In this document: positions 3,850-38,966 of the stretch, in pieces
How the letters are laid out: every line of letters begins with the position of its first letter
How positions within the stretch are numbered: position 1 is the stretch's first letter
Notes under the pieces: model-generated
What the model saw: only the letters and a program-made list of their open reading frames with translations
Told to the model about the DNA's origin: nothing
Database searches by the model: none
Program-made: the position numbers and the translations under genes
Source of the DNA: Candidatus Collierbacteria bacterium
GTDB taxonomy: Bacteria > Patescibacteriota > Microgenomatia > UBA1400 > MFAQ01
Assembly: GCA_903873735.1 (NCBI GenBank)
Contig: CAIQPO010000043.1
Location: 1-39,399, forward strand
DNA: 39,399 nt
Reading direction: 5' to 3'

Positions 3850-3875
3850 AAAAAAAACCCAGATAAAATCTGGGT
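3850..3875 (-). terminator. Intrinsic terminator, cassette 1
   Basis: ACCCAGAT-3 nt-ATCTGGGT hairpin followed by a T run on the minus strand. Confidence 0.8.
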
Positions 3876-3883
3876 CAATCATG

Positions 3884-4120
3884 CTACTCGGCGAAAGCCG
3901 GTATCTTCTCCTTGATCAGGTCGGAGGTGTCTTCATCGTCAACTGGGCGAACATCATGCCCGCAATCAGGGCAGACCGCCTTGACATCTACCGGCATCTC
4001 ACCGGCCATCTTGAATTCAAAGTCGACAAACCGCTGAACATCGTACAGGTGCTGACAACCTTCGCAGCGACAAAGTACAGGGAAATGCAAACCATCATGC
4101 TGACGGCGAACAACAGACAT
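3884..4120 (-). CDS. Cassette 1 cargo: small zinc-ribbon-like protein (78 aa)
   Basis: CRCEGC...CPDC; GGAGG SD; own promoter and terminator; C-ending codons unlike flanking minus-strand genes. Confidence 0.8.
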   Translation of the reverse strand: MSVVRRQHDGLHFPVLCRCEGCQHLYDVQRFVDFEFKMAGEMPVDVKAVCPDCGHDVRPVDDEDTSDLIKEKIPAFAE

Positions 4121-4125
4121 AGAAA

Positions 4126-4185
4126 CCTCCTCAAATTAAAAAGTTCGGATTTGAGTATTCTACCCTATAACCTAAAATAAGTCAA
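4126..4185 (-). promoter_or_regulatory. Cassette 1 promoter + boxA-like motif + SD
   Basis: TTGACT(4185-4180)-17-TAGAAT(4162-4157); CGAACTTTTTA (4147-4137); GGAGG (4130-4126). Confidence 0.75.
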
Positions 4186-4187
4186 AA

Positions 4188-4619
4188 TTACCCAGGGAAA
4201 TTTTTACTTACCAGCCTGTTCACCACGCTACCATCTACTTTTCCTCTAAGCTTGCCCATCACCAACCCCATTAGTCTCCCGCCTCTCACACCACTCGTCT
4301 CTGCTTCAGCCTTAATCACAGACAGCACCTCTTCCTCATCCATCATTTTTGGTAAATATTTTTGAATTTCTTCCAGTTCGTATTTCTCTTGATCTGCCCT
4401 CTCTACTGCTCCTGCTTTCTCATAAACTTCAATCGACTCCCTTCTCTTTTTCTGCTCCTTCATCAGCACTTTGATTATCTCCTCATCATTCAACTCACTT
4501 TGCTTATCCACCTGGGCATAACCAATTTCTGTAAGCAGCAATCTGATTACACCCAGCAAACGAACATCTTTGGCTTTTTGAGCCTCTACCATGTCCGCTT
4601 TTATTTGTGAATAAAGCAT
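4188..4619 (-). CDS. yqeY: GatB/YqeY domain protein
   Basis: KKRRESIEVY, ELEEIQKYLP, MGLVMGKLRGKVDG; follows rpsU as in many bacteria. Confidence 0.9.
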   Translation of the reverse strand: MLYSQIKADMVEAQKAKDVRLLGVIRLLLTEIGYAQVDKQSELNDEEIIKVLMKEQKKRRESIEVYEKAGAVERADQEKYELEEIQKYLPKMMDEEEVLSVIKAEAETSGVRGGRLMGLVMGKLRGKVDGSVVNRLVSKNFPG

Positions 4620-4625
4620 TTTTTA

Positions 4626-4853
4626 TTATTTTTTAGTGATACCTGCAAGTCTCTTATTTCTTCTTCTAATCTTAGCAGAAGCCTTTCTTAGCTCAGTCAT
4701 TTTGATATTCTTAAGCTTTGATGGCTTTTGGTATCCAGTCATGCCCACAGACTTGACCCGTTCAAGACCCTGATCTTCAAAAGTCAGTTTCCTAAATTCA
4801 TTGATCATCTGTTGTGCATTTTGTCCTTGCTTCTTGCGCACGACAATTGCCAT
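4626..4853 (-). CDS. rpsU: 30S ribosomal protein bS21
   Basis: Small basic protein with YQKPS motif in HIT-rpsU-yqeY synteny; GGAGG SD. Confidence 0.75.
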   Translation of the reverse strand: MAIVVRKKQGQNAQQMINEFRKLTFEDQGLERVKSVGMTGYQKPSKLKNIKMTELRKASAKIRRRNKRLAGITKK

Positions 4854-4890
4854 AAAGATACACCTCCTTTTTTTAAATACAATCTACTTA

Positions 4891-6322: not shown

Positions 6323-6337
6323 TGCCTAATTTTACAT

Positions 6338-6360
6338 AAAAAACCCGCCAATTGGCGGGT
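6338..6360 (-). terminator. Intrinsic terminator, cassette 2
   Basis: Palindrome ACCCGCCAATTGGCGGGT plus T run on the minus strand. Confidence 0.8.
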
Positions 6361-6367
6361 AAATCTT

Positions 6368-6655
6368 TCAAGCAGCAACAGGTAAAGCCTGCAGCTTTTC
6401 ATAGGCGAGGCGCACTTCAGTTTCCATTTCTGGACGGTAAGTGCAGATTCCGCGCGTGTCACGCGGCTGTCCTTCAATGTACTGCGCCGTTGACGGTGAA
6501 CCAATACATTCGCCCTCTGGCAGAATATGACGACTCTCTCCTTCATCGAAGACCATCTGATTTCTGGTGTAACCCATCAATTCATAGAGCAACCAGGCGT
6601 CATTGTTGGGTTGCACTGGCTGGCCACAGCGATCACAGGTAGGTAAGTTGCACAT
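6368..6655 (-). CDS. Cassette 2 cargo: hypothetical protein (95 aa) with N-terminal CxxC
   Basis: Start placed at ATG 6655 (MCNLPTCDRCG) after GAGGAG SD; own promoter and terminator. Confidence 0.75.
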   Translation of the reverse strand: MCNLPTCDRCGQPVQPNNDAWLLYELMGYTRNQMVFDEGESRHILPEGECIGSPSTAQYIEGQPRDTRGICTYRPEMETEVRLAYEKLQALPVAA

Positions 6656-6660
6656 ATCAT

Positions 6661-6730
6661 CTCCTCTGACAACAAAGTCCAGTTTAAAGAGCAATTGATG
6701 CATTATAGGGTATATTCTCCTAAAAGTCAA
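6661..6730 (-). promoter_or_regulatory. Cassette 2 promoter + near-consensus boxA + SD
   Basis: TTGACT(6730-6725)-17-TATAAT(6707-6702); TGCTCTTTAAA (6693-6683) versus E. coli rrn boxA TGCTCTTTAACA; GAGGAG (6666-6661). Confidence 0.8.
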
Positions 6731-6755
6731 AAAACCCACCCCTTCTAAGGGTGGG
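6729..6755 (-). terminator. Intrinsic terminator, cassette 3
   Basis: CCCACCC...GGGTGGG stem; its T run supplies the TT of the next -35 box (TTTTTTGACT). Confidence 0.8.
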
Positions 6756-6763
6756 CAATCATC

Positions 6764-7111
6764 TCAACACATCTTGTTAATTCTGCTTTCCAGATCAGCC
6801 ATCTGCTGAGCAATAATCTGATCCCAGTCAGAGGTATAAGCTTTAGCAGGATTTTCAGGCTCAACATAATCTCCAAGCACGTCGCCCGCCCTAACCTTGA
6901 AAACAGCCCCATTCAACAGATGAAGCTCGATCAGGTTATCCTCAAGACGTACTACACTCAAGCATGCTGGAGATGTTTTTGCCTGCTGCTCAAAGGCAGA
7001 AAGTGCAGTCAGCTGATTTGACCCTACTGCCGTAAAACCAGGAACAACTTGAAAATCCTTCCCCGGCCATGAAGCTTCTAGAGCAAAAACCTTCTCTGGA
7101 ATAGAGTTCAT
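6764..7111 (-). CDS. Cassette 3 cargo: hypothetical protein (115 aa)
   Basis: GGAGGT SD, own -10, boxA-like motif and terminator; no family recognised. Confidence 0.75.
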   Translation of the reverse strand: MNSIPEKVFALEASWPGKDFQVVPGFTAVGSNQLTALSAFEQQAKTSPACLSVVRLEDNLIELHLLNGAVFKVRAGDVLGDYVEPENPAKAYTSDWDQIIAQQMADLESRINKMC

Positions 7112-7116
7112 TCGTC

Positions 7117-7158
7117 ACCTCCAAAGACTTCAGAATAAATGTTCGATGCTTAATTATA
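7117..7158 (-). promoter_or_regulatory. Cassette 3 -10 box + boxA-like motif + SD
   Basis: TATAAT (7158-7153); CGAACATTTAT (7145-7135); GGAGGT (7122-7117); no clear -35. Confidence 0.65.
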
Positions 7159-7742: not shown

Positions 7743-8021
7743 TTATTGTTTTTTTTGATACCAATCTCTTCTTTTATCACCCAACACTACCTCCTCCGGA
7801 TTTCTACCTAAAAACTCTTCACCTTCTGTTTCAGGTAAATTTATAACTGCTTGGTCTAAACTCTTACCACCCAAACTGACCTTGCCACCCAATTCACCCT
7901 GATTTAAAGGAGGAGTGCTTTCTCTCGCCTTTTCCGCCTTCTTCCTACCCGCCTCTGCCCTAGCTTGCTGCTCGGCAATCATGTCATTCATTATCTTCTG
8001 CATTTCTGGTGTTACTTCCAT
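7743..8021 (-). CDS. Hypothetical protein (92 aa)
   Basis: Start moved to ATG 8021 (MEVTPEMQK), preceded by TAAATT-7 nt; the longer ORF overlaps cassette 4. Confidence 0.55.
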   Translation of the reverse strand: MEVTPEMQKIMNDMIAEQQARAEAGRKKAEKARESTPPLNQGELGGKVSLGGKSLDQAVINLPETEGEEFLGRNPEEVVLGDKRRDWYQKKQ

Positions 8022-8056
8022 ACCATACAATTTACCACACTTACCCTTAAATAAAG

Positions 8057-8100
8057 TAAAATACATCCCTATAAACAGCACTTTGACCAAGAAAAGGAGG
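8057..8100 (+). promoter_or_regulatory. Cassette 4 -10 box + boxA-like motif + SD
   Basis: TAAAAT (8057-8062); AGCACTTTGAC (8077-8087); GGAGG (8096-8100). Confidence 0.65.
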
Positions 8101-8105
8101 TACCC

Positions 8106-8396
8106 ATGAATACTCTCTATGTCCTTATGAGCCTTTTTGGCATTAATTTTCTTCCTAAAGGCTTCGCCCCCATCCCCGGTAAGACATTCTCCAAAGGAAG
8201 CGGCATAATTTACGGACACGAAATTGGGGCAAATAAAAACCTGCGTCTGGAATATCAAGGTGCCACCGCCAACCCGACTTTCAAAAAGGATAAAGACTCC
8301 ATCTGTGTTTATTTCGGCAACGGCTTTGTCTGCCTTTTCCCCGATGGCAGTGTGGTCATCACCGACTGTATCAACCTCTCACTCCAGGTATACTAA
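8106..8396 (+). CDS. Cassette 4 cargo: hypothetical protein (96 aa)
   Basis: AAGGAGG SD, terminator right after the stop; lies antisense between tsf and frr. Confidence 0.7.
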   Translation: MNTLYVLMSLFGINFLPKGFAPIPGKTFSKGSGIIYGHEIGANKNLRLEYQGATANPTFKKDKDSICVYFGNGFVCLFPDGSVVITDCINLSLQVY

Positions 8397-8398
8397 CC

Positions 8399-8430
8399 AA
8401 AAAAGCCCGCATATAGCGGGCTCTTTTATT
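8399..8430. terminator. Bidirectional intrinsic terminator (cassette 4 / tsf)
   Basis: A run-AGCCCGC-ATATA-GCGGGCT-T-rich tail between convergent genes. Confidence 0.8.
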
Positions 8431-8441: not shown

Positions 8442-8894
8442 TTATTCTTCTCCTAACTTAAACCTAGAAAACCTCATCACTCTGATGTTTTCTCCAGTTT
8501 TTCCTATCAAGCTTTTAACCAAGTTTTCAATAGTTATACCCGCATCTCTGATGTAGGCTTGAGCTAAAAGCTCATCTACATCTTTAGGATTCATTGAAAC
8601 AATCTGCATCGCCACCTCTTTACATAAAGTTTCAAACTCGGCTGTATCAGCCACAAAGTCTGTCTCACAGGCAATCTCCACCATAGCAGCAACTCTGCCA
8701 CCATTGTGGGTATAGCAATACACTTTGCCACTTCTCACCTCTCTGCTTGATTTACTTTCAGCTTTGGCTAAACCCTTGGCCTTGATAATTTCTTCAGCTT
8801 TTACCACATCTCCATTTGATTCCTCCAGTGCCTTCTTAGCGTCCATCACACCAGCACCAGTCTTCTCTCTTAATTCCTTTATTTTGTCCATCAT
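8442..8894 (-). CDS. tsf: Elongation factor Ts (short form)
   Basis: IKELREKTGAGVMDAKKAL, EIACETDFVA, KTGENIRVMRFSRF; follows rpsB. Confidence 0.96.
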   Translation of the reverse strand: MMDKIKELREKTGAGVMDAKKALEESNGDVVKAEEIIKAKGLAKAESKSSREVRSGKVYCYTHNGGRVAAMVEIACETDFVADTAEFETLCKEVAMQIVSMNPKDVDELLAQAYIRDAGITIENLVKSLIGKTGENIRVMRFSRFKLGEE

Positions 8895-9920: not shown

Positions 9921-9994
9921 TTGACTTTTACGCACAAATATGCTATCATCCACCATTAGCACTTTAACCTGACTGACACTGACCTAAGCGGAGG
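9921..9994 (+). promoter_or_regulatory. Cassette 5 promoter + boxA-like motif + SD
   Basis: TTGACT(9921-9926)-17-TATCAT(9944-9949) with extended TG; AGCACTTTAAC (9958-9968); GGAGG (9990-9994). Confidence 0.8.
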
Positions 9995-9998
9995 CACT

Positions 9999-10556
9999 AT
10001 GTTTTGGCAAATCTATTTACCCTTGGGTGTTTTTGCCCTGTTCTTCATTATGGGAATTATCAGCGCCGTCAGATCAGACGATCCTGAAATCGTCGGTAGT
10101 GGATTCAGGGTAGGAGTAGCATTTGGAATACTCTTCCTCTTCTTTGGCTTCTTGATCAACACTTTTTTCGGCCCAAAAATTTCGGCAAGTTCAATACCGG
10201 ATATCGAACATCCAACATATCTTGCCTCTTTCAGTGGTGACAAAGAACTTTTTGGCACATATGGTGCTTTCATAGTCGCCAGTGGCACTCTCAGTGAAAA
10301 ACGGCAGTATGAGTACTATTTCTATCTGCCTGATTCAAACAAGATTGCCTTCGCCAAAGTCGATGCTGCAACCGCCCTTATTGTGGAGGATAGCCCAGAT
10401 CGCCCATACATGATCAAGATTAAATCAGTATGCCCGAAAATCGACCCCCAAGGCAACTTCTGGCTTATTACCAGCTGCAACAATTACATCCCCTACGTTA
10501 TCGAATTCCATGTTCCGCAAGGCTCCGTAGTTCAGGAATTCATCGCCAACCCCTAG
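9999..10556 (+). CDS. Cassette 5 cargo: two-TM membrane protein with soluble C-terminal domain
   Basis: Two N-terminal hydrophobic helices; C-terminal EFHVPQGSVVQ resembles the next gene. Confidence 0.8.
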   Translation: MFWQIYLPLGVFALFFIMGIISAVRSDDPEIVGSGFRVGVAFGILFLFFGFLINTFFGPKISASSIPDIEHPTYLASFSGDKELFGTYGAFIVASGTLSEKRQYEYYFYLPDSNKIAFAKVDAATALIVEDSPDRPYMIKIKSVCPKIDPQGNFWLITSCNNYIPYVIEFHVPQGSVVQEFIANP

Positions 10557-10565
10557 TGCTTTATC

Positions 10566-10590
10566 AACCCGTCTCCCAAGACGGGTTTTT
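10566..10590 (+). terminator. Intrinsic terminator, cassette 5
   Basis: AACCCGTCT-CCCA-AGACGGGTT-TTT. Confidence 0.85.
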
Positions 10591-10597: not shown

Positions 10598-10660
10598 TTG
10601 ACATACAAATAACTCAGTGATATCCTATAGGTCGTACTTTCCCATTTCTGTTCGATGGAG
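10598..10660 (+). promoter_or_regulatory. Cassette 6 promoter + boxA-like motif + SD
   Basis: TTGACA(10598-10603)-17-TATCCT(10621-10626) with extended TG; CGTACTTTCCC (10633-10643, degenerate); GGAG (10657-10660). Confidence 0.7.
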
Positions 10661-10669
10661 ACCAAACAC

Positions 10670-11224
10670 ATGCTCACACCAATCATCGTTTTGCTTATCG
10701 GCTTGCTCATCTTCCGCAAGGTGTACTTCTATGCGGACCCTGACATTCGCGATAGTCGACCAAGCTTCGACAAAGAAATGTTTATCCTCGTGGCGATCGT
10801 TGCCATCTTTGCGGGACTTTTGACTGGTGTACTCACCAGCATGGCTTTCCCCACTGTTTCTGTCGCCAACGACCCAGTAAAGCTGGAAACCATGGATATC
10901 AGCGGCCCCGAAATTCAGGGTCGATTCTTCCTGGGATCAGGCTACATCGACAGCGAAGAATACTACGTCTTCCGCTATTATGTGCCTGGCATGAACAATG
11001 TCCTCCGCGACGGCAAAGTCTATCGCTACGAACCGCGTTACCAGGTTATCAACCTGATTCGCGATCAAGAAGCTGACTCTGCCTACTATGTCACCTATCA
11101 TTACGAGTTCGCCTGGGATTGGGCCAAGTGGTTAGCATACAGCCCCATGGACACCACCCCGGAAATATATGATTTCCACATTCCGGCGAACGCCATCGTC
11201 CCGCAGATCAGCATCCAGAAATAG
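10670..11224 (+). CDS. Cassette 6 cargo: two-TM membrane protein, probable homologue of cassette 5 cargo
   Basis: Start placed at ATG 10670 after GGAG; two TM helices, GRFFLGSGYID, YDFHIPANAIVPQ. Confidence 0.8.
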   Translation: MLTPIIVLLIGLLIFRKVYFYADPDIRDSRPSFDKEMFILVAIVAIFAGLLTGVLTSMAFPTVSVANDPVKLETMDISGPEIQGRFFLGSGYIDSEEYYVFRYYVPGMNNVLRDGKVYRYEPRYQVINLIRDQEADSAYYVTYHYEFAWDWAKWLAYSPMDTTPEIYDFHIPANAIVPQISIQK

Positions 11225-11231
11225 CACCTCC

Positions 11232-11255
11232 ACCCGCCTCCATGGCGGGTTTTTT
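11232..11255 (+). terminator. Intrinsic terminator, cassette 6
   Basis: ACCCGCC-TCCAT-GGCGGGT-TTTTT. Confidence 0.85.
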
Positions 11256-14189: not shown

Positions 14190-14240
14190 TATACTTTCCC
14201 ACCAGCGTACCTTTACAGGCTTCTTTTAGACACAAGGAGG
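14190..14240 (+). promoter_or_regulatory. Cassette 7 -10 box + boxA-like motif + SD
   Basis: TATACT (14190-14195); CGTACCTTTAC (14206-14216); GGAGG (14236-14240). Confidence 0.65.
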
Positions 14241-14244
14241 TATT

Positions 14245-14463: not shown

Positions 14464-14470
14464 ATCTAGT

Positions 14471-26905: not shown

Positions 26906-26928
26906 ACACAACTCAATATGTAGTCAAC

Positions 26929-27569: not shown

Positions 27570-29684
27570 ATGGCTACTTCAGAATCAGTCTACACAAAAT
27601 ATATTCGTTTTTGTTTCTACGCTCTCCTATTTTTTACTCCCCTAATTCTCTGGACCAAAACCTCTGAAGTTTTTGAGTTTAATAAAATGCTTTTTGTTTA
27701 TGCGAGCACTGCCATTATCTCCACCCTTTGGATAATAGACTCGGCTCAAAAAGGCAAGTTCTCGCTTGTACGTACTCCACTTGATCTTCCCATTGCTCTA
27801 TTCTTAATATCTCAATCAATCTCTACCCTCACTTCAATCGACAAACATACCAGTCTCTTTGGTTATTACTCAAGATTCCACGGGGGTCTCGCATCCACCA
27901 TTTGCTACCTAATACTTTATTTCGCATTTACTTCACATTTCATCGGCAAAATTAAGGAGGTTAAACTCACCTTGTTATCGATAATTGCCTCATCTACTAT
28001 CGTCTGTGCCTACGGTATTCTTGAGCATTTCGGCATTGATAAACACATCTGGGTTCAGGATGTACAAAGTAGAGTCTTCTCGACTCTCGGGCAACCCAAC
28101 TGGCTCTCTGCATATCTCATCACTATCCTACCTCTTAACATATACTTCTATCAAAAAGCACAATCAGGTTTTCTTAAATATTTTCTTTTAGCAGCTGCCT
28201 TGTCAAACTTAGTTACCATTCTCTTTACCAAATCTAAGTCAGGAATCGGTGCCACCATCCTCACACTCCTAATTTACTTTTCCTTCCAAACTCTGAAAAA
28301 CAGACAATATCTAAAACTAAAAACTACTGCGATTATTTTGTCCTCTTTCCTTGTAATTACTTTTATCATCGGCACCCCCTGGACCTCAAACCCAGCATAC
28401 ATCAACAAGGCTCTAACATTAGGCGGTCCTACTTTTCCCTCATTTGAAAAGTACCTAAACCGTATCGGTCTCACCACCCAAGTAAAACCCATCGATACTA
28501 CAAAAATAAGCCAACAAGAGGTCAAACAACTTGATCTAGAAGCGAAGGGGATAAGAGTGGGTGGTTCTGACTCAATGGACATTAGAAAGGTAGTCTGGCA
28601 AGGAGCCATAAAACTTGGCTTAAAATATCCCTTCTTTGGTCCGGGTGTTGAGACTTTTGGTTACACCTACTACACAGTAAGGCCTGCCTCACACAACTTG
28701 CTCTCTGAATGGGATTTCTTATACAACAAAGCACACAATGAGTATCTAAACTTCCTGGCTACCACTGGCTTCATCGGTTTAGGCACTTACCTTTTCCTCA
28801 TTATCTCAACTCTATTTCTTTTGGTAAAAACAATAAAACATCCAGACTCCGGAGAGCTATCTCTTGCTCTTCTATCAGGATATATCTCCATTCTTATTAC
28901 CAACTACTATGGCTTTTCGGTTGTTAATGTGGCTTTACTATTTTTCCTTATCCCAGCCTTTATCTTTACATATTCACCTCCAAAGAATGTCTTCATATCC
29001 ACAGTTTCAATACACCTTCCATTTATCACATCCGCAATTGCCATTACCCTATTACTATTCACCCTCTACCAGACACATATCACCTGGAAAGCAGACATCA
29101 ACTACGCCACTGGCAAAGCACTAATGCAAGTCAACTATGACTATCTAGCTGACGCCATCTCTAGCCTGTCTAAAGCCGTTAACTCCAGACCAAACGAACC
29201 TGTTTTCAGATCCACCCTTGCCGAGTCTCACGCTATGGCTGCAGTCTACATTAATAGCCTACTTCAAACTCCAGAAGCCTCTGCTGCATCAACCCAACAA
29301 AAACTCAAAGAACAAAGACAGCTCTATACAAATTCCGCTATTGCCAATGCACAAGAATCTATAAAACAAAACCCGTTTCACACCAATTTTTACAAAAACA
29401 AAGCAAAAATTGAAATTATGCTAGCTAGCACCGATCCTATTTACTACGAGCAAGCAATAAAGACTTTTGAAAAGATTATTGAGCTCTCACCTACTGAAGC
29501 CAAAATGTACTACAACTTAGGACTTATACACTACACCCTAGGTAATCTAGAACAAGCCAAATCTTACTACGCCAAAGCTCTGGAACTCAAGCCAGACTAC
29601 TTCAAATGGGAAGAATTCATGAAAACACTTTCAGATAGACAAAAGGAACTAGACAAGGCAAAAACCAATAAAAAAGGCAGGTAA
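27570..29684 (+). CDS. O-antigen ligase/oligosaccharyltransferase-like membrane protein with C-terminal TPRs
   Basis: Many TMs, RVFSTLGQPNW, TKSKSG, GPGVETF, KAHNEYL; TPR YYNLGLIHYTLGNLEQAKSYYAKALELKP. Confidence 0.85.
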   Translation: MATSESVYTKYIRFCFYALLFFTPLILWTKTSEVFEFNKMLFVYASTAIISTLWIIDSAQKGKFSLVRTPLDLPIALFLISQSISTLTSIDKHTSLFGYYSRFHGGLASTICYLILYFAFTSHFIGKIKEVKLTLLSIIASSTIVCAYGILEHFGIDKHIWVQDVQSRVFSTLGQPNWLSAYLITILPLNIYFYQKAQSGFLKYFLLAAALSNLVTILFTKSKSGIGATILTLLIYFSFQTLKNRQYLKLKTTAIILSSFLVITFIIGTPWTSNPAYINKALTLGGPTFPSFEKYLNRIGLTTQVKPIDTTKISQQEVKQLDLEAKGIRVGGSDSMDIRKVVWQGAIKLGLKYPFFGPGVETFGYTYYTVRPASHNLLSEWDFLYNKAHNEYLNFLATTGFIGLGTYLFLIISTLFLLVKTIKHPDSGELSLALLSGYISILITNYYGFSVVNVALLFFLIPAFIFTYSPPKNVFISTVSIHLPFITSAIAITLLLFTLYQTHITWKADINYATGKALMQVNYDYLADAISSLSKAVNSRPNEPVFRSTLAESHAMAAVYINSLLQTPEASAASTQQKLKEQRQLYTNSAIANAQESIKQNPFHTNFYKNKAKIEIMLASTDPIYYEQAIKTFEKIIELSPTEAKMYYNLGLIHYTLGNLEQAKSYYAKALELKPDYFKWEEFMKTLSDRQKELDKAKTNKKGR

Positions 29685-29694
29685 TTTACCTGCC
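29670..29694 (-). terminator. Intrinsic terminator, cassette 11
   Basis: GGCAGGTAA/TTACCTGCC stem plus T run on minus; overlaps the 3' end of the convergent gene. Confidence 0.75.
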
Positions 29695-29695
29695 A

Positions 29696-30061
29696 TCACC
29701 TACCCACCTGCCTTAGGAAAAACAAATAATCCTTCCAAGTCAGTGCTACTACCACCGTATCATTTTGCCTTAACACCTTTATGTCGGCTGTTGGGTATGT
29801 TTCAATAAATTGCGTAAGCTGCCCCTCAGTCATCATTATAAAAAACATCGCCACTAATCTTTCAGGAAAGACCTCCACCACACAGCCAATTCTCACAAAT
29901 CCAGCCAGGTTTTCAATCTTTCGAGTCCCGATCAAACCCTTCATATTTTTACGACCCCACACAGCCTTACCCGCAAGCGATGCCCTTTTAACATACAGCA
30001 TCAACTGCCTGTCGGTCTCTTCCCTTTTACTACCAGAAAGAAAAACTTTCTCTCTTATCAT
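29696..30061 (-). CDS. Cassette 11 cargo: hypothetical protein (121 aa)
   Basis: GGAGG SD, -10, boxA-like motif and terminator. Confidence 0.7.
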   Translation of the reverse strand: MIREKVFLSGSKREETDRQLMLYVKRASLAGKAVWGRKNMKGLIGTRKIENLAGFVRIGCVVEVFPERLVAMFFIMMTEGQLTQFIETYPTADIKVLRQNDTVVVALTWKDYLFFLRQVGR

Positions 30062-30066
30062 TTTCG

Positions 30067-30112
30067 CCTCCGTCGTGTCTAAAGTTTCTCAATGTTCGAT
30101 TTGTATATTCTA
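30067..30112 (-). promoter_or_regulatory. Cassette 11 -10 box + boxA-like motif + SD
   Basis: TAGAAT (30112-30107); CGAACATTGAG (30098-30088); GGAGG (30071-30067). Confidence 0.65.
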
Positions 30113-30176: not shown

Positions 30177-30713
30177 ATGAAAATTCTTGTATCACCAGAC
30201 CCATTTCTAAAAATTGTAGCCAAGCCGGTTGAAAAGATTGATAAGAAACTTCTAGACCAGCTTAGCGACATGACTCAAACCCTAAAACAGGCTCAAGACC
30301 CGGAGGGTGTTGGCTTGGCAGCTACACAGGTAGGTATTGATAAGAGACTCTTCATTCTCAATCTCCACAACCAAATAGAAGTCATCATAAATCCCAAAAT
30401 CATCCAAGTTTCCGAAGCAAAACTATCAGAAATCTACACCAAGAAAAAGGACAGGTGGCTTGAAGGCTGTCTTTCACTTCCCCAAATCTGGGGTTTCGTA
30501 GACAGACCTTTCTGGGTAGATATTGAATACCAAACAATCAAAAACAACCAGCTTGTTTCAAAAACCAGAAGATTTGAAGGGGTTGAGTCATCCTATGCTC
30601 TACATGAATATGACCATCTGGATGGAATTCTTTTCACCGATAGGATTCTTGAACAAAAAGGCATTATCTATCAAGAAACGGAACACGGCTTATCTCCCAT
30701 AGACTTGATATAA
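30177..30713 (+). CDS. def: Peptide deformylase
   Basis: GVGLAATQVG, EGCLS, HEYDHLDG. Confidence 0.97.
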   Translation: MKILVSPDPFLKIVAKPVEKIDKKLLDQLSDMTQTLKQAQDPEGVGLAATQVGIDKRLFILNLHNQIEVIINPKIIQVSEAKLSEIYTKKKDRWLEGCLSLPQIWGFVDRPFWVDIEYQTIKNNQLVSKTRRFEGVESSYALHEYDHLDGILFTDRILEQKGIIYQETEHGLSPIDLI

Positions 30714-30736
30714 AAAATCCCCGCCTGAAGCGGGGA
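30712..30736 (-). terminator. Intrinsic terminator, cassette 12
   Basis: TCCCCGC-5 nt-GCGGGGA plus T run on minus, abutting the def stop. Confidence 0.8.
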
Positions 30737-30741
30737 ATCTC

Positions 30742-31230
30742 TTACCAGAGCACGACAAAGGAGACAAATAACCATACAGCCAAGAGGAGAAACGTGATAA
30801 ACATCGTAAACTCTGATGTTCCCACTTGACCCACCTGGTTAGTGGCAGTAAGCTCCACTGGGTTGTCAGCATTTACCACCTTGATGTACACATCGGTGGA
30901 ACATTTTTCTACTACCACCACCGTCCCTGGTCTAAGTACCAGCGAAGAGGTGTAGCCGTAAGGCGCACCACCTTCTGCCCGAGTTGAATCGATGTATTCA
31001 CCGTCAACCTTAAGCAAAAAAGTGTCACGGCTCACAATTGTTACCGACAGCTCCTCTTCGCGTTGTGGGTTGGCGTATGATACTGTCACTTTGCTACCAA
31101 CCCCAAGCTCCATAGATAAGTCGTGCCCGACCTGGTGACCGTTTTTGGTGGCATAAGACACACCACCCAAGAAAACGACAATCACCGCAGCTACAAATAC
31201 GAAGGTAAGCAATTTTTCCCAGAATTTCAA
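30742..31230 (-). CDS. Cassette 12 cargo: membrane protein with N- and C-terminal TM helices (162 aa, TTG start)
   Basis: AAGGAGG SD; hydrophobic termini around a beta-rich domain; antisense between def and fmt. Confidence 0.8.
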   Translation of the reverse strand: MKFWEKLLTFVFVAAVIVVFLGGVSYATKNGHQVGHDLSMELGVGSKVTVSYANPQREEELSVTIVSRDTFLLKVDGEYIDSTRAEGGAPYGYTSSLVLRPGTVVVVEKCSTDVYIKVVNADNPVELTATNQVGQVGTSEFTMFITFLLLAVWLFVSFVVLW

Positions 31231-31235
31231 AACAG

Positions 31236-31292
31236 CCTCCTTAATGTACGATATTTACCCTATAGAATATCACAGGTATAATATATTTGCAA
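31236..31292 (-). promoter_or_regulatory. Cassette 12 promoter + boxA-like motif + SD
   Basis: TTGCAA(31292-31287)-17-TATTCT(31269-31264) with extended TG; CGTACATTAAG (31250-31240); GGAGG (31240-31236). Confidence 0.7.
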
Positions 31293-34365: not shown

Positions 34366-34395
34366 AAAAAAATCCCTACCAAAGTTGGTAGGGAT
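34366..34395 (-). terminator. Intrinsic terminator, cassette 13
   Basis: ATCCCTACCAA/TTGGTAGGGAT stem plus T run on minus. Confidence 0.85.
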
Positions 34396-34414
34396 CATCT
34401 CACAAGCGGAGGGG

Positions 34415-35149
34415 CTAATACTCACCACGGGACTCAGCCAACTCACGATCGCGACGACGCTTTTTGGAGCCGTCATGACCACGTTCGTCAGCATATTCTC
34501 CCGTTTGAGAGCCACCCTTCTTGCCGCCCTTTTTGCCGCCCTTCTTGCCCTTCGGCTTGTCAGCCATGGGGGCGTCATTTGGGGCGACAGTCGCAACCGG
34601 AGCTGCCGGCTTCTTCTCGTCGGGCTTGTTGTAGCATACCCGGCAGAAGCGGAAGGGGCGGGCGCCGTCTTTGCGAGGCGGGATGGGTTCGCCACAGTCC
34701 TGGCAGAAGCCACCGTCCCATTGGAAAGTAGCCATCTCCTGCGAGATGTCGGTGATCAGCTTGACCACCTTGGTCGCCTCTGCTTTCGCCTCAGCAGCAC
34801 GAACCCGCAACAGGTCGTGGTAAGCCACATCAGCTTCGACCACCCTGTCGCGAAATGCCAGGTCAAAGAGCGCTTGGCCTTTGTGGCCCTTGGCGTTCTC
34901 TTCCCGGACAAATTCGGCGGCCTGGTCGAGAAGCTTGTAGTAGGCTTCCGTGGCCAGCTCGAGATCCGGCAGCTTGGCTGCAAAGCGCTTGATCGCGCCG
35001 TGCACGTCAAGCAGCTGCTGCACCGAGGCCGCGTCCTTAGCTACCTGCATTTTCTTCCAGTAGTGGGATTTTACCCCTTCATACTGAGCAGGAAGGTCCT
35101 CGATGGCCTTGATGATCTGCGACACGATGCGATCGATTCTTTCAGGCAT
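34415..35149 (-). CDS. Cassette 13 cargo: helical protein with DksA/TraR-type C4 zinc finger and Lys/Gly-rich tail (244 aa)
   Basis: Start ATG 35149 after AAGGAG; GFCQDCGEPIPPRKDGARPFRFCRVC; KPKGKKGGKKGGKKGG; markedly GC-rich. Confidence 0.8.
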   Translation of the reverse strand: MPERIDRIVSQIIKAIEDLPAQYEGVKSHYWKKMQVAKDAASVQQLLDVHGAIKRFAAKLPDLELATEAYYKLLDQAAEFVREENAKGHKGQALFDLAFRDRVVEADVAYHDLLRVRAAEAKAEATKVVKLITDISQEMATFQWDGGFCQDCGEPIPPRKDGARPFRFCRVCYNKPDEKKPAAPVATVAPNDAPMADKPKGKKGGKKGGKKGGSQTGEYADERGHDGSKKRRRDRELAESRGEY

Positions 35150-35157
35150 AGTCTCAT

Positions 35158-35222
35158 CTCCTTTGTGAAATAGGTGAATGTGCAAGTGGGAATATATTAC
35201 TCCTATAGGTTTATATTGTCAA
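35158..35222 (-). promoter_or_regulatory. Cassette 13 promoter + boxA-like motif + SD
   Basis: TTGACA(35222-35217, 1 nt after the Elp3 stop)-17-TAATAT(35199-35194); TGCACATTCAC (35184-35174); GGAG (35161-35158). Confidence 0.75.
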
Positions 35223-35223: not shown

Positions 35224-36744
35224 CTACAAGTCCTTCACCATATACTGACCTTCCAACCTATAACCCAAGTTAAGATAATATTCTCTTGTGCCTATGGCTG
35301 AAATAATTGCCATTTTTTTATATCCATTTGTTAAGGCAATCTTTTCTGCCTCAATAAGAAGCTTCTTTCCCAATCCCCTATGCTGAGTTTTATCTTGTTC
35401 ATGAGTATTTAGCGATAAAACTTGACCATATGTGTGCACTTCTCTAACCACTGCTGCTCCTTTTATACCCAGCTTCTTTGCAATCTCACTTTCCTCATCA
35501 GGTAGTCTCAATCTAAGCATTGAATATAAATATGTATTATCTTCAAATGACAAAAACAGCTCCCTCCCTCCCAACGTTTTTCTATCATTACATCTTAACT
35601 CCAATCCTTCAGTCTGATGAACATTTCCCCTCACTTCTCTACATCTGATACATTTACAACTTCTCCCCTCCTCTTTTAGTTGTTTTTGTAATACTTGTCT
35701 TAGGTTTGTCCGCTGAGTTCCTACCGCCACCCATTTTTTGCTTATATCTCGCACCAGTCTATCAATCCTACAATAAACAGGTGTAAGCGTTTTTACCTCT
35801 TTCAACACTTCGATAAGCTTACTTTCATCATATGGTCTATACTCTCCCCGCTTCCACATTTCATACATCTCCGAACCTGGAATTGTCATTGCTGGATACA
35901 CCTTAAGATAGTCTGGACCAAAACGAGAATCCTCAAACATTAACTTTGCCATCTCATTATCTTTTTCAGGAGAAGAACCAGGCAAATTAGGCATAAAGTG
36001 ATAGCAAATTTTTAGTCCTGCATCTCTGCACATTCTAGTTGCTTCGGCTACTCTTTCCAAAGAGTGTCCTCTTTTAATTATACTTAGTATCTGTTCATCA
36101 AGCGCCTGCACTCCCATCTGTACTTTCGTCACCCCCATCGATCTCCATAAAACAATTTCATTTTCATTAATCCAATCAGGTCTTGTCTCAACTGATATCC
36201 CCACCACTCTTCTTTTTGCTGTCTGATTGAATTCAATTGCTCCCTCAAGTGACTCACTCACCACTCCATTTACCCCATCGTACATACCCTTAAAAAACTC
36301 TATCTTATATTCTCTTGTATACGCAGAAAATGTGCCTCCAATAACAATCAAGTCAATCTTATCTGTAGGGTGCCCGGTTTCTTCCATTTGTTTTATTCTG
36401 CCTTCAACTTGCAATCTTGGGTCAAAATTAAGCATTTTAGCTCTCTGCGCTGCTGGCTCATCGGAAAGATAAGACTTCGGCATCCCTTCTTCTAGTGGGC
36501 AATACACGCACTGCCCAGGACAAGGAAATGGCTTCATCATCACCGCGAATGGCGCCACACCACTTTCAGTTCTCACTCCTCTTGTTCTCAAGTACTCCCT
36601 CAAGTCAATATCATCAATATGTGGCCAAATATCAGAGTTTCTTGGCATCTGCCTTAACTCCCTTGACCATAGCCTGCGATAGTCCTCAAAATTTTCTAAA
36701 GTGATTTTCTCTCTGTCTCGCACTATTAATTCTTCTAGATTCAT
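35224..36744 (-). CDS. elp3: Elp3-family tRNA uridine(34) carboxymethyltransferase (radical SAM + KAT)
   Basis: VRTESGVAP, CPGQCVYCP, PKSY, GGTF, ETRPD, CKCIRCRE, VREVHTYG, QHRGLGKKL, ISAIGTREYY. Confidence 0.92.
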   Translation of the reverse strand: MNLEELIVRDREKITLENFEDYRRLWSRELRQMPRNSDIWPHIDDIDLREYLRTRGVRTESGVAPFAVMMKPFPCPGQCVYCPLEEGMPKSYLSDEPAAQRAKMLNFDPRLQVEGRIKQMEETGHPTDKIDLIVIGGTFSAYTREYKIEFFKGMYDGVNGVVSESLEGAIEFNQTAKRRVVGISVETRPDWINENEIVLWRSMGVTKVQMGVQALDEQILSIIKRGHSLERVAEATRMCRDAGLKICYHFMPNLPGSSPEKDNEMAKLMFEDSRFGPDYLKVYPAMTIPGSEMYEMWKRGEYRPYDESKLIEVLKEVKTLTPVYCRIDRLVRDISKKWVAVGTQRTNLRQVLQKQLKEEGRSCKCIRCREVRGNVHQTEGLELRCNDRKTLGGRELFLSFEDNTYLYSMLRLRLPDEESEIAKKLGIKGAAVVREVHTYGQVLSLNTHEQDKTQHRGLGKKLLIEAEKIALTNGYKKMAIISAIGTREYYLNLGYRLEGQYMVKDL

Positions 36745-36760
36745 CGCTTTATTTTAACCG

Positions 36761-36784
36761 AAAAAACCTACCATTAAGGTAGGT
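36761..36784 (-). terminator. Intrinsic terminator, cassette 14
   Basis: ACCTACC-5 nt-GGTAGGT plus T run on minus; the cargo stop lies in the loop. Confidence 0.7.
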
Positions 36785-36992
36785 ATATCACAAACTTCTT
36801 GCTTGTATCCAGTTTAGCTAGATTACTCTTTTTCCAAAAAATTATGTACACATCTCCATTAGGCATAATCACTTCTTTCGTGACATATACCTCTCCAAGT
36901 TCGGGGTGTTCATCGACTACCAACACACGATTGTCGTCTTTACCCTCAATCTCACGAACGAAATATGTTTTTAAAGCCCGTTTTTCAACCAG
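36774..36992 (-). CDS. Cassette 14 cargo: small hypothetical protein (~72 aa), start uncertain (CTG inferred)
   Basis: TAAAAT (37023-37018), GGAGG (37003-36999) 6 nt before in-frame CTG, terminator at the stop. Confidence 0.5.
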   Translation of the reverse strand: MVEKRALKTYFVREIEGKDDNRVLVVDEHPELGEVYVTKEVIMPNGDVYIIFWKKSNLAKLDTSKKFVIYLP

Positions 36993-37044
36993 TTCACACC
37001 TCCCTAATGTTTTCCATATTTTACTACACAAATACCTGAATAAC

Positions 37045-37104
37045 TTGAAAAATCTAATATTATCGGATATAATACGCACGAACGCACCCTAACATTCAAA
37101 GGAG
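37045..37104 (+). promoter_or_regulatory. Cassette 15 promoter + boxA-like motif + SD
   Basis: TTGAAA(37045-37050)-17-TATAAT(37068-37073); CGCACCCTAAC (37083-37093); GGAG (37101-37104). Confidence 0.75.
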
Positions 37105-37112
37105 AAAAACTT

Positions 37113-38930
37113 ATGATTGGATACATTGTCATTGGAGTTTTGCTGTGCACTCTGGCTGGGCTGGTTCCCCAATTAATCTCAAGGGACACCATGGCCAGGT
37201 CTGTCAAATGGGCCATCGCTGCCCTAGTTGGCAACATTATCTTCATCAGCGCCCAGGTCTATCTCGCCCCGCCGGCACATGTTGGACCGCTCGATGGCTA
37301 CCAGTTTCTCTGGCTTCCGCTCCTGGTGAATACAGTCATCGGCCTCGGCATCGCCCTCTTCAAATCTGATTCTTTTGATGGAGATGAAGAGACCAGTACC
37401 ATCAACATGCTTGCCGGTGCTGGTAATGGCGCCATACTCCTCATCCTGTTCGTTGTCATGGCTATCATCGCCATGGCGACTACTTGGGGTGAAGGAAACG
37501 CCAAGGCAAGAGCTTACTTTTTACCCATAGAAGAGGTGCAAATCGACCCCTCCTTGGGAACAAACGCTCCCGAAAGTTTTCCCGACAACGACCCCGCCCA
37601 CATCATCATGGTTGAAGAAGCCACCGCCCGCCATATCGGCTCACGAGCCATTGGCCAAACCGGCGTAAACTTCGGCTCAACCTACAAACCCGGTACCTAT
37701 ACCAAACAAATGGTACAGGGACACATGTACTGGGTGGCACCGGTGGAGTACCAAAACTTCTTTGCCAACCTCAAACTCCCCACCACCCCAGGCGTGATTG
37801 TAGTCGATGCAGAAAACCCCATGACCGAACCTCGATTCGACCAGACGTGTCAACTGCGGTATGTCCAAAGCGCCATCCTCAACCAGGATCCCATCCGCTA
37901 TCTTTACATCAGCGGCTACGATCAATATCTCTTTGTCGATCCTACATTTGAATACGACGACAACTGGGTTCCGTATATTACTGTGGATGGAAGCATTTAC
38001 CAGAGGGGGCTCTACGGATCACAGGTGGTCAAAGTCTTTACCATCAATGTCTGCACCGGTGAGATCGCTGAATACAGCTTGGCTGACAAACCGGCCTGGA
38101 TTGACCGCATTCTGCCACTGTCTGCCATTGATCAAAACCTCGACGACTACGGCAATTTCTACAAGGGAACCTGGCCAGTGATGTTCAACACCACCGGTCA
38201 AGGAATTGAAACAAGGGCAGACGACACTACCCCCACAGCCTACTCCTCCGTCTCAAAGAGCCCAGTCTATCAGTATGTCATGACCAGCAAAAACACCACC
38301 GACTTTAGCTCGCTGGGTATCATCCTGGTGGATACCAATTCTTACACTGCCAGGCGCTTCCCCATCTACGGCCTGCTGGTAGGCTCCAAGGTAACAGATG
38401 CCTTCATGGATATTGAGTGGAACAAGGCAGGTGATAGTCACAACTACGATATCACCGAACCAGTTCTCTACAATATCTACGGCCGCCTTACTTGGGTCAC
38501 CACCTACATCAACCCCGCAAGTAATGGTATGGCAGACTACAAATCCATCGCTTTCCTGGACGCCTACTTCGTCAGCTCGGCCAATGTCATCCGCGCCGAG
38601 ACCAAAGAAGAGGCTTTGTTGATGTACCAACTCTGGCAAGCAAACCGCCCTTCAAACGACACCGACCCTGGCAGCACAGCCAATCTTGTGCCCTTGTCCG
38701 GCGAGATCATCCAATTCAATGCCGAAGTAAAAAATGGCAACACCATTTACTACTTCATGATCAAGGGTGAAGATGGTGTGGTGGTCAATACTATCTTCTC
38801 AGTCACCCCCACCGACGCGGTTCGCGAAATTCGTTTCACCGAATACGGCGACCAGGTGAGCTTTACCTACGTCGAACTCGGTAGCGGCAGCGCTTCCGTC
38901 TCCTCCTTTGATAACCTCAACGTACCATAA
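37113..38930 (+). CDS. Cassette 15 cargo: 605-aa protein, four N-terminal TMs plus large soluble domain
   Basis: Four hydrophobic helices, then YWVAPVEY, FEYDDNWVPY, PAWIDRILP, PVLYNIYG; function unknown. Confidence 0.85.
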   Translation: MIGYIVIGVLLCTLAGLVPQLISRDTMARSVKWAIAALVGNIIFISAQVYLAPPAHVGPLDGYQFLWLPLLVNTVIGLGIALFKSDSFDGDEETSTINMLAGAGNGAILLILFVVMAIIAMATTWGEGNAKARAYFLPIEEVQIDPSLGTNAPESFPDNDPAHIIMVEEATARHIGSRAIGQTGVNFGSTYKPGTYTKQMVQGHMYWVAPVEYQNFFANLKLPTTPGVIVVDAENPMTEPRFDQTCQLRYVQSAILNQDPIRYLYISGYDQYLFVDPTFEYDDNWVPYITVDGSIYQRGLYGSQVVKVFTINVCTGEIAEYSLADKPAWIDRILPLSAIDQNLDDYGNFYKGTWPVMFNTTGQGIETRADDTTPTAYSSVSKSPVYQYVMTSKNTTDFSSLGIILVDTNSYTARRFPIYGLLVGSKVTDAFMDIEWNKAGDSHNYDITEPVLYNIYGRLTWVTTYINPASNGMADYKSIAFLDAYFVSSANVIRAETKEEALLMYQLWQANRPSNDTDPGSTANLVPLSGEIIQFNAEVKNGNTIYYFMIKGEDGVVVNTIFSVTPTDAVREIRFTEYGDQVSFTYVELGSGSASVSSFDNLNVP

Positions 38931-38938
38931 GATCCATC

Positions 38939-38966
38939 AGACCCCGCAATTGCGGGGTCTTTTTTT
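38939..38966 (+). terminator. Intrinsic terminator, cassette 15
   Basis: Palindrome AGACCCCGCAATTGCGGGGTCT followed by a T run. Confidence 0.85.

Follow-up and report, generated by a model that had tools for sequence, protein, structure and literature searches.

The window analysed here, i.e. the whole stretch of DNA considered, is a contig of 39,399 nucleotides (CAIQPO010000043.1, or C43; C-numbers denote contigs of the genome under study, G000). This metagenome-assembled genome (MAG) of a Candidatus Collierbacteria bacterium, a member of the Candidate Phyla Radiation (CPR, or Patescibacteria), comprises 97 contigs and 1,012,324 bases, with a completeness of 92% and a contamination of 1.2%; the genomes of its relatives measure 0.5–1.3 Mb. 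Among the long open reading frames (ORFs) of the window Pfam identifies housekeeping genes, namely dnaX, ybeY, yqeY, HIT, rseP, frr, tsf, rpsB, folD, glyA, tmk, Nramp, thyX, topA, PBP2, mreC, mreB, a gene for a Wzy/TPR protein, def, fmt and rpmB; the remaining Pfam-assigned ORFs encode an M50 peptidase, an Elp3-like radical-SAM protein and a methyltransferase. Between these genes lie fifteen small units, U1 to U15, each composed of promoter signals, an orphan ORF (ORFan; in U9 a predicted RNA) and a terminator. Our best explanation, to which we give a probability of about 0.6, is that they are autonomous, insulated ORFan cassettes lodged between core transcription units and subject to fast turnover, a chromosomal counterpart of the morons and promoter-early stem-loop (PeSL) elements of phages.

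Fifteen single-gene units between housekeeping genes

The initial annotation, made from the letters of the window, had described fifteen single-gene units built to one template, and all fifteen were recovered where it placed them. In a terminator scan the top-ranked hairpins (8 in the first half of the window, 7 in the second) are the 3' ends of U1–U15, while the other 33 sites are weak; terminator-like sites number 24 in each half, vs 12.1±3.6 in shuffles of the first and 15.8±3.8 in shuffles of the second. The T-run stands only on the unit's own 3' side in 13 of the 15 units (it is two-sided in U4 and U10), which assigns the hairpins to the units rather than to convergent core genes. Each of the 15 best hairpins closes one unit, in agreement with the earlier statement that every clear terminator belongs to one of them.

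A loose promoter scan is less telling: it gives 36 sites vs 39.8±5.3 in shuffles for the first half of the window (no excess) and 54 vs 36.6±6.0 for the second. Strong promoters, with at least 10 of 12 matches to TTGACA/TATAAT, are concentrated at the units: 9 of 15 open one (U1, U2, U5, U6, U8, U9, U10, U13 and U15), as do 9 of the 11 with a 17-nt spacer. With TTGCAA-17-TATTCT of U12 (-35 box, spacer length, -10 box) these nine make up the ten units reported to have a -35 starting with TTG at 17 nt from the -10; U3, U4, U7, U11 and U14 have a good -10 only. The Shine-Dalgarno (SD) sequence GGAG(G) is present in all 14 ORF units, as claimed. The conserved 5' motif stood in part: the expression [GC]N-AC-N-TT matches 11 of the 14 leaders, U2 has a variant, and U14 and U15 lack it. 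The hexamer TATAGG or its complement CCTATA occurs within 140 nt upstream in 9 of the 14 ORF units.

The cargo differs from its surroundings both in content and in composition. No Pfam family (E≤1e-3) was found in any of the 14 unit proteins, vs 25 of the 35 other window ORFs, in line with their description as orphans. The GC content of unit genes is 0.479 vs 0.402 for other window genes (p 2e-5), their GC content at third codon positions (GC3) 0.522 vs 0.370 (p 1e-5), and their strand skew -0.17 vs -0.34 for their neighbours (p 7e-5). The remark that several units are visibly GC-richer thus holds for the group, which is also less strand-skewed, with U7, U11 and U14 host-like; the weakest members are U14, U3 and U4. 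The window contains no integrase, transposase or phage structural gene, as had been noted, and the flanks of the units are housekeeping genes syntenic in five relatives (three genomes of the same genus and two complete genomes of the family, 50–100 kb sampled per relative). Cargo was compared at syntenic sites in four of them, G001, G002, G004 and G008.

U1 (3850–4185, minus strand) has the promoter TTGACT-17-TAGAAT with TATAGG in the spacer, GAACTTT, an SD and a terminator at 3856–3876; its cargo is a 78-aa Zn-ribbon-like ORFan (3884–4120) with a same-site homolog only in G002 (42%). U2 (6338–6730, minus) combines TTGACT-17-TATAAT, an SD, an ORFan of about 95 aa with a CxxC motif (6368–6655) and a terminator at 6343–6360; its -35 stands directly against the T-run that closes U3, and the cargo has no Pfam family and no match in the four syntenic relatives. 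In U3 (6729–7158, minus) a -10 box (TATAAT), with no good -35, directly follows the frr stop, then GAACATT, GGAGG, a 115-aa ORFan (6764–7111) and a terminator at 6734–6756. The U3 protein finds only itself among 5.8 billion proteins, at word-index sensitivity. U4 (8057–8430, plus) consists of the -10 box TAAAAT, CCTATA, GCACTTT, AGGAGG, a 96-aa ORFan (8106–8396) and a two-sided terminator at 8404–8422. It overlaps about 150 nt of a 171-aa ORF on the opposite strand next to frr (7743–8258, minus), of which only 87 aa match a relative (G004, 39%) and whose 5' part is probably non-coding.

U5 and U6 are adjacent, the -35 of U6 coming just past the terminator of U5. U5 (9921–10590, plus) displays CCTATAAC followed by TTGACT-17-TATCAT, GCACTTT, GGAGG and a terminator at 10566–10587, and encodes a 185-aa membrane ORFan (9999–10556) that matches phrog_8077 at E 5e-7 and has weak same-site matches in G002 and G008. 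U6 (10598–11255, plus), with TTGACA-17-TATCCT, CCTATAGG, GTACTTT, an SD and a terminator at 11232–11250, encodes a membrane ORFan of 184–189 aa (10655 or 10670 to 11224) that matches the same phrog_8077 at E 1e-5; its same-site homologs in G001, G002 and G008 are 43–49% identical. U7 (14190–14496, plus) has the -10 box TATACT, GTACCTT, AAGGAGG, a TTG start, a 72-aa ORFan (14245–14463) with same-site homologs in G001 and G002 at 46–47%, and a terminator at 14471–14492. U8 (17404–18016, minus) reads TTGATA-17-TATAAT with TATAGG in the spacer, GTACTTT, AGGAGG, a 173-aa ORFan (17418–17939) and a terminator at 17410–17427, five bases from the end of thyX; like that of U3, its protein hits only itself in the same search of 5.8 billion proteins.

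U9 (20050–20602, minus) stands apart. Its TG-extended promoter TTGACA-17-TATTAT precedes a putative transcript of about 518 nt (51% GC) without any SD-led ORF, closed by a terminator at 20057–20082. The predicted fold has a minimum free energy of -227.8 kcal/mol (z = -10.4), with paired 5' and 3' ends. No Rfam family was found for U9, either at the gathering score or at E≤10; no credible Rfam match was obtained at the gathering score anywhere in the window, nor was a tRNA or tmRNA found in it. By BLASTN its DNA matches only itself, with nothing in 43 family genomes, in the syntenic regions of relatives or elsewhere in its own genome. It is the sole GC-rich cassette without ORF behind an 11–12/12 promoter in the genome, and is predicted to be an orphan structured RNA.

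U10 (26240–26958, plus) has a TG-extended TTGACT-17-TATATT, TATAGG, GCACTTT, AGGAG, a 187-aa ORFan with hydrophobic segments at both termini (26342–26905) and a terminator at 26929–26955. U11 (29670–30112, minus) is placed between the stop codon of wzy and a def promoter conserved with G001; it comprises the -10 box TAGAAT, GAACATT, GGAGG, a 121-aa ORFan (29696–30061) with a weak same-site match among the four relatives, and a terminator at 29676–29694 that overlaps the end of the Wzy/TPR gene. In U12 (30712–31292, minus) the promoter given above is accompanied by TATAGG, GTACATT, AGGAGG, a TTG start, a 162-aa membrane ORFan (30742–31230) with no match in the four relatives, and a terminator at 30718–30736.

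U13 (34366–35222, minus) shows TTGACA-17-TAATAT with CCTATAGG in the spacer, GCACATT, AAGGAG and a terminator at 34371–34396. Its 244-aa ORFan (34415–35149; GC 0.58) is composed of a helical bundle, a Zn ribbon and a Lys-rich tail; the structure model is a confident helical bundle (predicted local distance difference test, pLDDT, 80.6) with no PDB match at E≤0.001. Among 1.84 billion proteins it has 10 representatives, all at ≤33% identity, and tblastn against phage records gave no match. U14 (36761–37023, minus), the weakest unit, has the -10 box TAAAAT, GGGAGG, a small ORF starting at CTG or later and a terminator at 36766–36784, with no -35 and a low, host-like GC content. U15 (37045–38966, plus), with TTGAAA-17-TATAAT, AGGAG and a terminator at 38939–38960, encodes a 605-aa membrane protein (37113–38930) with four N-terminal helices and a beta-rich domain but no Pfam family; its model (pLDDT 58) is too poor for a structure search. 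It has 4 homologs among 5.8 billion proteins, and the family is patchy, occurring in Ktedonobacterales, Peptostreptococcaceae, Methanosarcina, Melainabacteria, several Patescibacteria and, as weak matches, Lactobacillus and Enterococcus phages. Its relatives in Collierbacteria lie in other genomic contexts, yet keep the promoter, SD and terminator.

Start signals of core and cassette genes

Nine window genes outside the units (ybeY, rseP, frr, folD, glyA, hyp381, hyp207, elp3 and the methyltransferase gene) have no SD but a TAAAAT-like box 5–9 nt before their ATG. Three of these boxes, all TAAAAT on the minus strand, come just past a cassette terminator: at 3840–3845, 7 nt before the ybeY ATG and 4 nt past the T-run of U1; at 6329–6334, 6 nt before the rseP ATG and past U2; and at 36751–36756, 6 nt before the elp3 ATG and past U14. 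The start of elp3 is supported by alignments beginning at residue 1–2 in 5 of 5 relatives, and those of mreB and topA were likewise confirmed in relatives. In unbiased genome-wide counts exact TAAAAT and TATAAT peak 6–7 nt before ATG (33 and 24, vs a background of 2–4) and the commonest hexamers at this distance are all TANNNT, while SD hexamers peak at 4–6 nt; such boxes before the ATG are seen in relatives too. The 1173 genes delivered by a custom, crude ORF caller fall into 351 of leaderless type, 437 of SD type and 385 of neither. From these signals the conserved genes appear leaderless, without SD and almost without terminators; it is because the core genome appears to use this other grammar that the units look like one conspicuous template. 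No earlier report of leaderless starts in CPR bacteria was found in the literature searched.

A comparable arrangement is that of the "group C" genomes of GeneMarkS-2, in which a Pribnow box lies 6–8 nt from the start of operon-first genes and SD sequences are found elsewhere; the group was reported mainly in Actinobacteria and Deinococcus-Thermus, with atypical genes usually of lower GC (Lomsadze et al. 2018, PMC6028130, available part). The likeness extends to the -10 offset, which peaks here at 6–7 nt, to the SD before other genes and to genes of atypical composition forming a separate class. In its available part, however, PMC6028130 does not describe an SD-led, terminator-bearing class that coincides with the ORFan accessory genome.

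The genome-wide scan suggested by the initial annotation revealed this layout on 52 of the 97 contigs, which supports its idea of an accessory layer extending over the whole genome. Promoter, SD and terminator are combined in 61 of the 1173 genes ("strict" cassettes), SD and terminator in 158 ("relaxed" cassettes, about 13% of the genes), and some units hold two genes. A terminator directly follows 36% of SD genes but only 3% of leaderless genes and 8% of those with neither signal, so that the layout is far from equally common around core genes; the corresponding values for a promoter of at least 10/12 upstream are 19%, 3% and 7%. In total 158 of the 198 detected terminators follow SD-led genes, and the p values of these class separations range from 1e-18 to 1e-30. 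The 61 strict cassettes have a GC3 of 0.58 vs 0.40 for all other genes (p 1e-30), with 0.534/0.392/0.533 vs 0.484/0.360/0.381 at the three codon positions, and their amino acid content is shifted (Lys 0.67x, Ala 1.26x). An N-terminal hydrophobic segment occurs in 45% of cassette proteins. The cargo is ORFan genome-wide: Pfam families were found in 0 of 20 random cassettes outside the window and in 7 of 10 random leaderless genes, i.e. 0/34 vs 7/10 with the window units (Fisher p 3e-6). Paralogs exist for only 13 of the 158 cassette proteins. PADLOC gave 0 matches for the 10 cargo proteins submitted, and PHROG matches at E<1e-4 were obtained for 3 of 24 cassette proteins (those of the 14 window units and of 10 genes of the C81 island).

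This island (locus L032, C81 8188–18382) is an array in which about 16 small SD-led genes follow one another, almost every one with a terminator of its own; it includes three tandem paralogs (15772–18382), and one of its genes matches phrog_9822, of unknown function. A shorter array of about 7 such genes, again nearly all with terminators, occupies C24 3036–7358.

Cassette promoters share a grammar: often CCTATAAC before the -35, then TTGACA, a 17-nt spacer and TGnTATAAT, with TATAGG/CCTATA in or near the spacer. Among near-perfect promoters (11–12/12) of the genome, 45 of 63 have the 17-nt spacing. Downstream come a discriminator rich in C, the motif GCAC(A/T)TT, a leader poor in G with a median length of 45 nt, GGAGG and ATG. 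Next to the SD, the 5-mers enriched in leaders are GCACA, ACTTT, CACAT and ACATT (z about 9–10), and the motif is found in 56 of 82 leaders, its commonest distance from the -10 being 7 nt. In the putative promoter of the 16S rRNA (locus L118, C27 about 700–830, minus), TTGTCA-17-TAAAAT, the same start-region motif recurs as GCACTTT 6 nt later. Judged on such signals, much of the "one template" is the clade's general grammar for strong leadered promoters.

Two other roles were considered for the leader motif. In the T7 gene 10 leader the epsilon enhancer pairs with 16S rRNA. An epsilon-like function of GCAC(A/T)TT was dropped as unsupported: no complementarity of at least 7 nt exists in the assembled 5' 700 nt of the 16S rRNA, whose 3' end (anti-SD) is unassembled. 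The motif is also not the -35 of an extracytoplasmic function (ECF) sigma promoter (the genome has three genes of the sigma-70 family), being 1 nt from the SD in U12.

The initial annotation had also suggested a common regulation. Among hexamers TATAGG/CCTATA ranks second to TATAAT in intergenic enrichment (6.5-fold), and 77% of strict cassettes, 29% of SD+terminator genes and 5–10% of the other classes have it in the 130 nt upstream; this makes the suggestion plausible. One possible reading, which we hold tentatively, is a single regulon under a hypothetical factor binding this hexamer, e.g. a repressor that would silence about 100 strongly promoted ORFans until a signal is received. The use of both orientations (TATAGG 41, CCTATA 39) is as expected of a site acting at the DNA level, the hexamer is also present in promoters of G002, G004 and G008, and the near-consensus promoters would otherwise be extremely strong. 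Its position relative to the -35/-10 is nevertheless scattered (-8, +8, +16, +21, +28), some instances are merely CC+TATAAT or overlap the -10, and the depletion of the hexamer in coding DNA inflates the enrichment ratio. Moreover, among strong-promoter genes it accompanies not only 44 of 60 GC-rich ones but also 14 of 35 with low GC3. A regulon of this kind is compatible with the cassette explanation.

Slot variability and possible origin of the cargo

Core genes of the window are syntenic in the relatives at 50–93% identity, and their tight junctions stay tight, while the gaps that serve as cassette slots vary widely. The rseP/frr gap measures 843 nt here, 30 in G008, 94 in G002, 652 in G001 and 1190 in G004. 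Here it holds two forward cassettes; in G001 a single one, of the same promoter-leader-SD build, occupies the opposite strand. Where the slot is short (G008 and G002) the leaderless rseP promoter is intact, its -10 being TAAGAT or TAGAAT at the same offset. Likewise the wzy/def gap is 492 nt here vs 8 in G008 and 73 in G001, the gap between elp3 and the methyltransferase gene is 2259 nt here vs 135 in a relative, and that between mreB and wzy is 132 nt in a relative.

Cargo varies accordingly: homologs at the same site exist for U1, U6, U7 and U10 in one to three of the four relatives (42–49%), matches of U5 and U11 are weak, and 8 of the 14 proteins have none. Vertical conservation of cargo at its site is therefore not the rule, slots being empty or re-filled. 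The wider distribution is patchy too: U15 in 2 of 30 genomes, U10 in 3 of 43 (at the same site, 43–45%), U13 in 8 of 43 (all weak and at other loci), U8 in 2 of 43 (weak) and U9 in none of 43.

SD+terminator genes make up 21 of 57 genes in G004 and 21 of 75 in G008, in stretches chosen by their synteny with the window, vs 3 of 98 and 0 of 64 in two other families of the order, each represented by a single sample; the cassette layer looks like a family-level trait. The GC3 excess of this class is +0.15 here and +0.04 and +0.05 in G004 and G008. Contigs from two public lake-water DNA runs, possibly of the source sample, span the cassette/core junctions; among the public runs listed with this stretch none is of RNA. 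These contigs are short, about 4–5x deep and identical to the window, and the only joints they display are in conserved genes, probably of other organisms. They contain no cassette joints or circles, an absence that is uninformative at this depth, and the relatives are too diverged for breakpoints to be placed.

In the explanation that we favour, a cassette would begin with a sigma-70-type promoter (-35 TTGACA, then TGnTATAAT after a 17-bp spacer), in many cases with at least one TATAGG/CCTATA in or beside it, followed by the C-rich discriminator. Its transcript would start at or near GCAC(A/T)TT and run through the G-poor leader of 45 nt (median) and the GGAGG SD into one ORF (sometimes two, once an RNA), to end at a one-directional intrinsic terminator. 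Such cassettes would sit at the boundaries between conserved transcription units of a CPR chromosome of about 1 Mb. Since a leaderless gene would need its AUG at the mRNA 5' end, read-through from an insertion would bury that AUG, and only insertions bringing their own promoter, SD and terminator would be tolerated. From one relative to another cargo would be acquired, lost or exchanged for other cargo, probably through import from a GC-richer pool (phages or members of the clade) and recombination via the conserved flanking genes; the composition of the cargo does argue for a GC-richer source.

Several points weigh against this explanation or narrow it. All promoters, transcript starts, leaderless assignments and termination sites are deduced from the sequence alone. 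The genome-wide counts include spurious ORFs with starts picked by signal, and the comparison with other families depends on the stretches sampled, as said above. Neither TATAGG nor the start motif is exclusive to cassettes. Junctions in which a terminator is followed by a leaderless -10 and an ATG number four in the window (U1>ybeY, U2>rseP, U13>hyp207 and U14>elp3), but terminators that directly abut a leaderless promoter concern only 6 of the 158 cassettes of the genome, including three of the window junctions; the insulation argument is therefore a general one, not tied to that geometry. As for import, U6 and U10, conserved at their site across genera (43–49%), are as GC-rich (GC3 0.63–0.66) as unique cargo, so that a recent import followed by amelioration fits poorly. 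Cassettes also carry much of the strand skew (third-position skew +0.20/-0.42 vs +0.49/-0.41), and no donor was found, the best outside identity being 55%. The core GC3 of the relatives is 0.44–0.57 vs 0.37 here, and possible sources of the cargo are exchange within the clade, repeated flank-mediated replacement or a distinct mutation-selection balance.

Finally, cassettes do not account for every variable gene of the window: hyp381, hyp204, thyX and nramp, none of them cassettes, are missing or weak in some relatives. The first two are ORFs of 381 aa (23949–25094, minus) and 204 aa (26957–27571, minus) with host-like composition, no Pfam family and no cassette layout. The 532-aa product of thyX (15807–17405, plus) contains two Thy1 stretches and is roughly double the normal length; it is weakly matched in the syntenic regions of the four relatives, in which the adjacent Nramp gene has a match in G008 only.

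These facts could also suit native, vertically inherited genes that evolve fast, with a composition set by mutation-selection balance (expression level, recombination-linked GC bias) and slots formed by loss only. U1, U6, U7 and U10 do occupy the same site across genera at 42–49% identity, the GC3 excess recurs in three genomes of different base composition, and the strand skew of cassettes and the lack of donors point the same way. We nevertheless judge this view unlikely. Empty slots of 8–94 nt with intact promoters, together with unrelated cargo on the opposite strand, require gains or replacements beside losses; relatives of U13 and U15 are at other loci, and members of the U15 family are dispersed among Chloroflexota, Firmicutes, Methanosarcina, other Patescibacteria and phages. 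Expression level alone is insufficient, because ribosomal and translation genes have no GC3 excess.

The units might instead be moved by a dedicated system, either PeSL-like recombination at terminator/promoter junctions or an integron-like site-specific recombinase. At U3>U2 and U5>U6 the T-run touches or extends into the -35 that follows; genome-wide 9 of 82 strong promoters have a T-run abutting the -35 and 29 of 82 a run of at least five T within 45 nt upstream. Same-strand cassette arrays on C81, C24 and C75, different cargo in either orientation in one slot, and the layout kept by U15 relatives at other loci are all as such a system would leave them, and two tyrosine recombinases (PF00589) are encoded on C18 and C85, that of C18 between two cassettes. 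However, nothing is conserved beyond functional promoter positions or past the terminators. The longest exact match is 18 nt and the typical one 7–9 nt, little above leaderless controls; there is no attC-like shared hairpin and no recombinase in the window, and the two recombinases may simply be XerC/D. A dedicated system seems to us quite improbable, and the common acquisition mechanism proposed by the initial annotation, for cargo that is almost all unrelated, finds no support in these comparisons.

De novo birth from intergenic DNA beside existing promoters and terminators would explain why U3 and U8 lack homologs, and many cargos are short, but it is very hard to reconcile with an intergenic GC of 39% vs about 50% for cargo (GC-rich at codon positions 1 and 3), with empty slots of 8–94 nt, too short as a source, with the confident bundle model of U13, or with the distant relatives of U5, U6 and U15 in phages or other phyla. 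Chance co-occurrence of motifs, or an assembly or binning artefact, to which the loose promoter scan in half of the window and the 97-contig MAG might lend some weight, can practically be discarded given the 15 of 15 top hairpins at unit ends, the 45 of 63 near-perfect promoters with 17-nt spacing, the class separations, the contamination of 1.2%, the same architecture in complete genomes of relatives and the junctions bridged in independent contig sets.

Returning to autonomous insulated cassettes, a bolder formulation, which we put forward with considerable reserve, would be that genomes of this CPR family speak two expression languages: a leaderless, terminator-free core and, in each genome, about 150 standardised, exchangeable ORFan packages made up of strong promoter, TATAGG, leader, SD, gene and terminator, the package being the unit both of exchange and of common control.

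Related systems and further features

The closest parallels come from phages. In T4-type phages PeSLs place strong sigma-70 promoters and stem-loop terminators before ORFans in hyperplastic regions; they are linked to insertion, deletion and replacement, and their terminators were proposed to stop spill-over into neighbours (Arbiol et al. 2010, PMC2839356; Comeau et al. 2014, PMC4122927; available parts of both). As far as these parts describe them, PeSLs resemble the present units in their composite of strong promoter and stem-loop terminator, then SD and start codon, before ORFans lying between conserved blocks. They differ in three respects: the units are on a cellular CPR chromosome, not in a phage; the classical terminator is upstream of, or abuts, the -35 instead of being inside the promoter; and no mutually similar motif is repeated, whereas PeSL motifs are points of homologous exchange. 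Mini-circles and recombination between elements are known for PeSLs; here slots differ between relatives.

A phage moron is a single coding region with its own promoter and terminator, located between genes that are adjacent in relatives and of deviant composition, with an unknown mechanism of acquisition (PMC4378225, available part). The units share with morons, so described, the layout, the insertion between genes adjacent in relatives and the deviant composition. Unlike morons they are not in a phage or prophage but flanked by dnaX, frr, rpsB, topA, mreB, def, etc.; they are GC-richer, not AT-richer, and the class amounts to about 13% of the genes of the genome.

Integron cassettes are promoterless, end with attC and are expressed from a common Pc, with IntI next to attI. 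The units resemble them as single-gene modules ending in a hairpin element, sometimes in same-strand arrays and mostly of unknown genes. They differ in that each unit has its own promoter and an unrelated GC-stem terminator with T-run, with no shared attC-like 3' flank, and in that they are dispersed in both orientations, with no IntI/attI in the window.

The literature searched, from which subscription journals and supplementary files lay outside, gave no report of such cassettes in CPR bacteria. CPR bacteria have many unexplained hypothetical genes, of whose expression and renewal little is known. Here signals in the DNA suffice to separate, at very high contrast, an accessory ORFan layer of about 13% of the genes from the core, which is of practical use for picking accessory genes and correcting gene starts in such MAGs. 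The explanation also yields a testable rule, i.e. that whatever inserts into a tightly packed, leaderless genome has to be insulated, and a set of cis-elements (TATAGG, GCAC(A/T)TT, consensus -35/-10 and strong terminators) for expression work in organisms difficult to cultivate. Should cassettes be exchanged as units, the moron/PeSL principle would extend from phages to a cellular chromosome; and if the package is the exchange unit, it could be the main route by which streamlined symbionts gain novel proteins, for the cell surface or for regulation, and even structured RNAs like U9.

The window has a GC content of 41.6% and an extreme GC skew, from -0.09 to -0.45 along its length. The skew between replication strands is very strong in the window and in contigs C94, C85 and C75, with contig means up to ±0.38 and a core third-position skew of about ±0.5. 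The core GC3 of 0.37 is far below that of the same-genus relatives (0.51–0.57). The Elp3-like radical-SAM protein (35224–36744, minus), 67–70% identical in relatives, has a weak, sub-threshold C-terminal GNAT match, and the EF-Ts (8442–8894, minus) is unusually short, with 150 aa.

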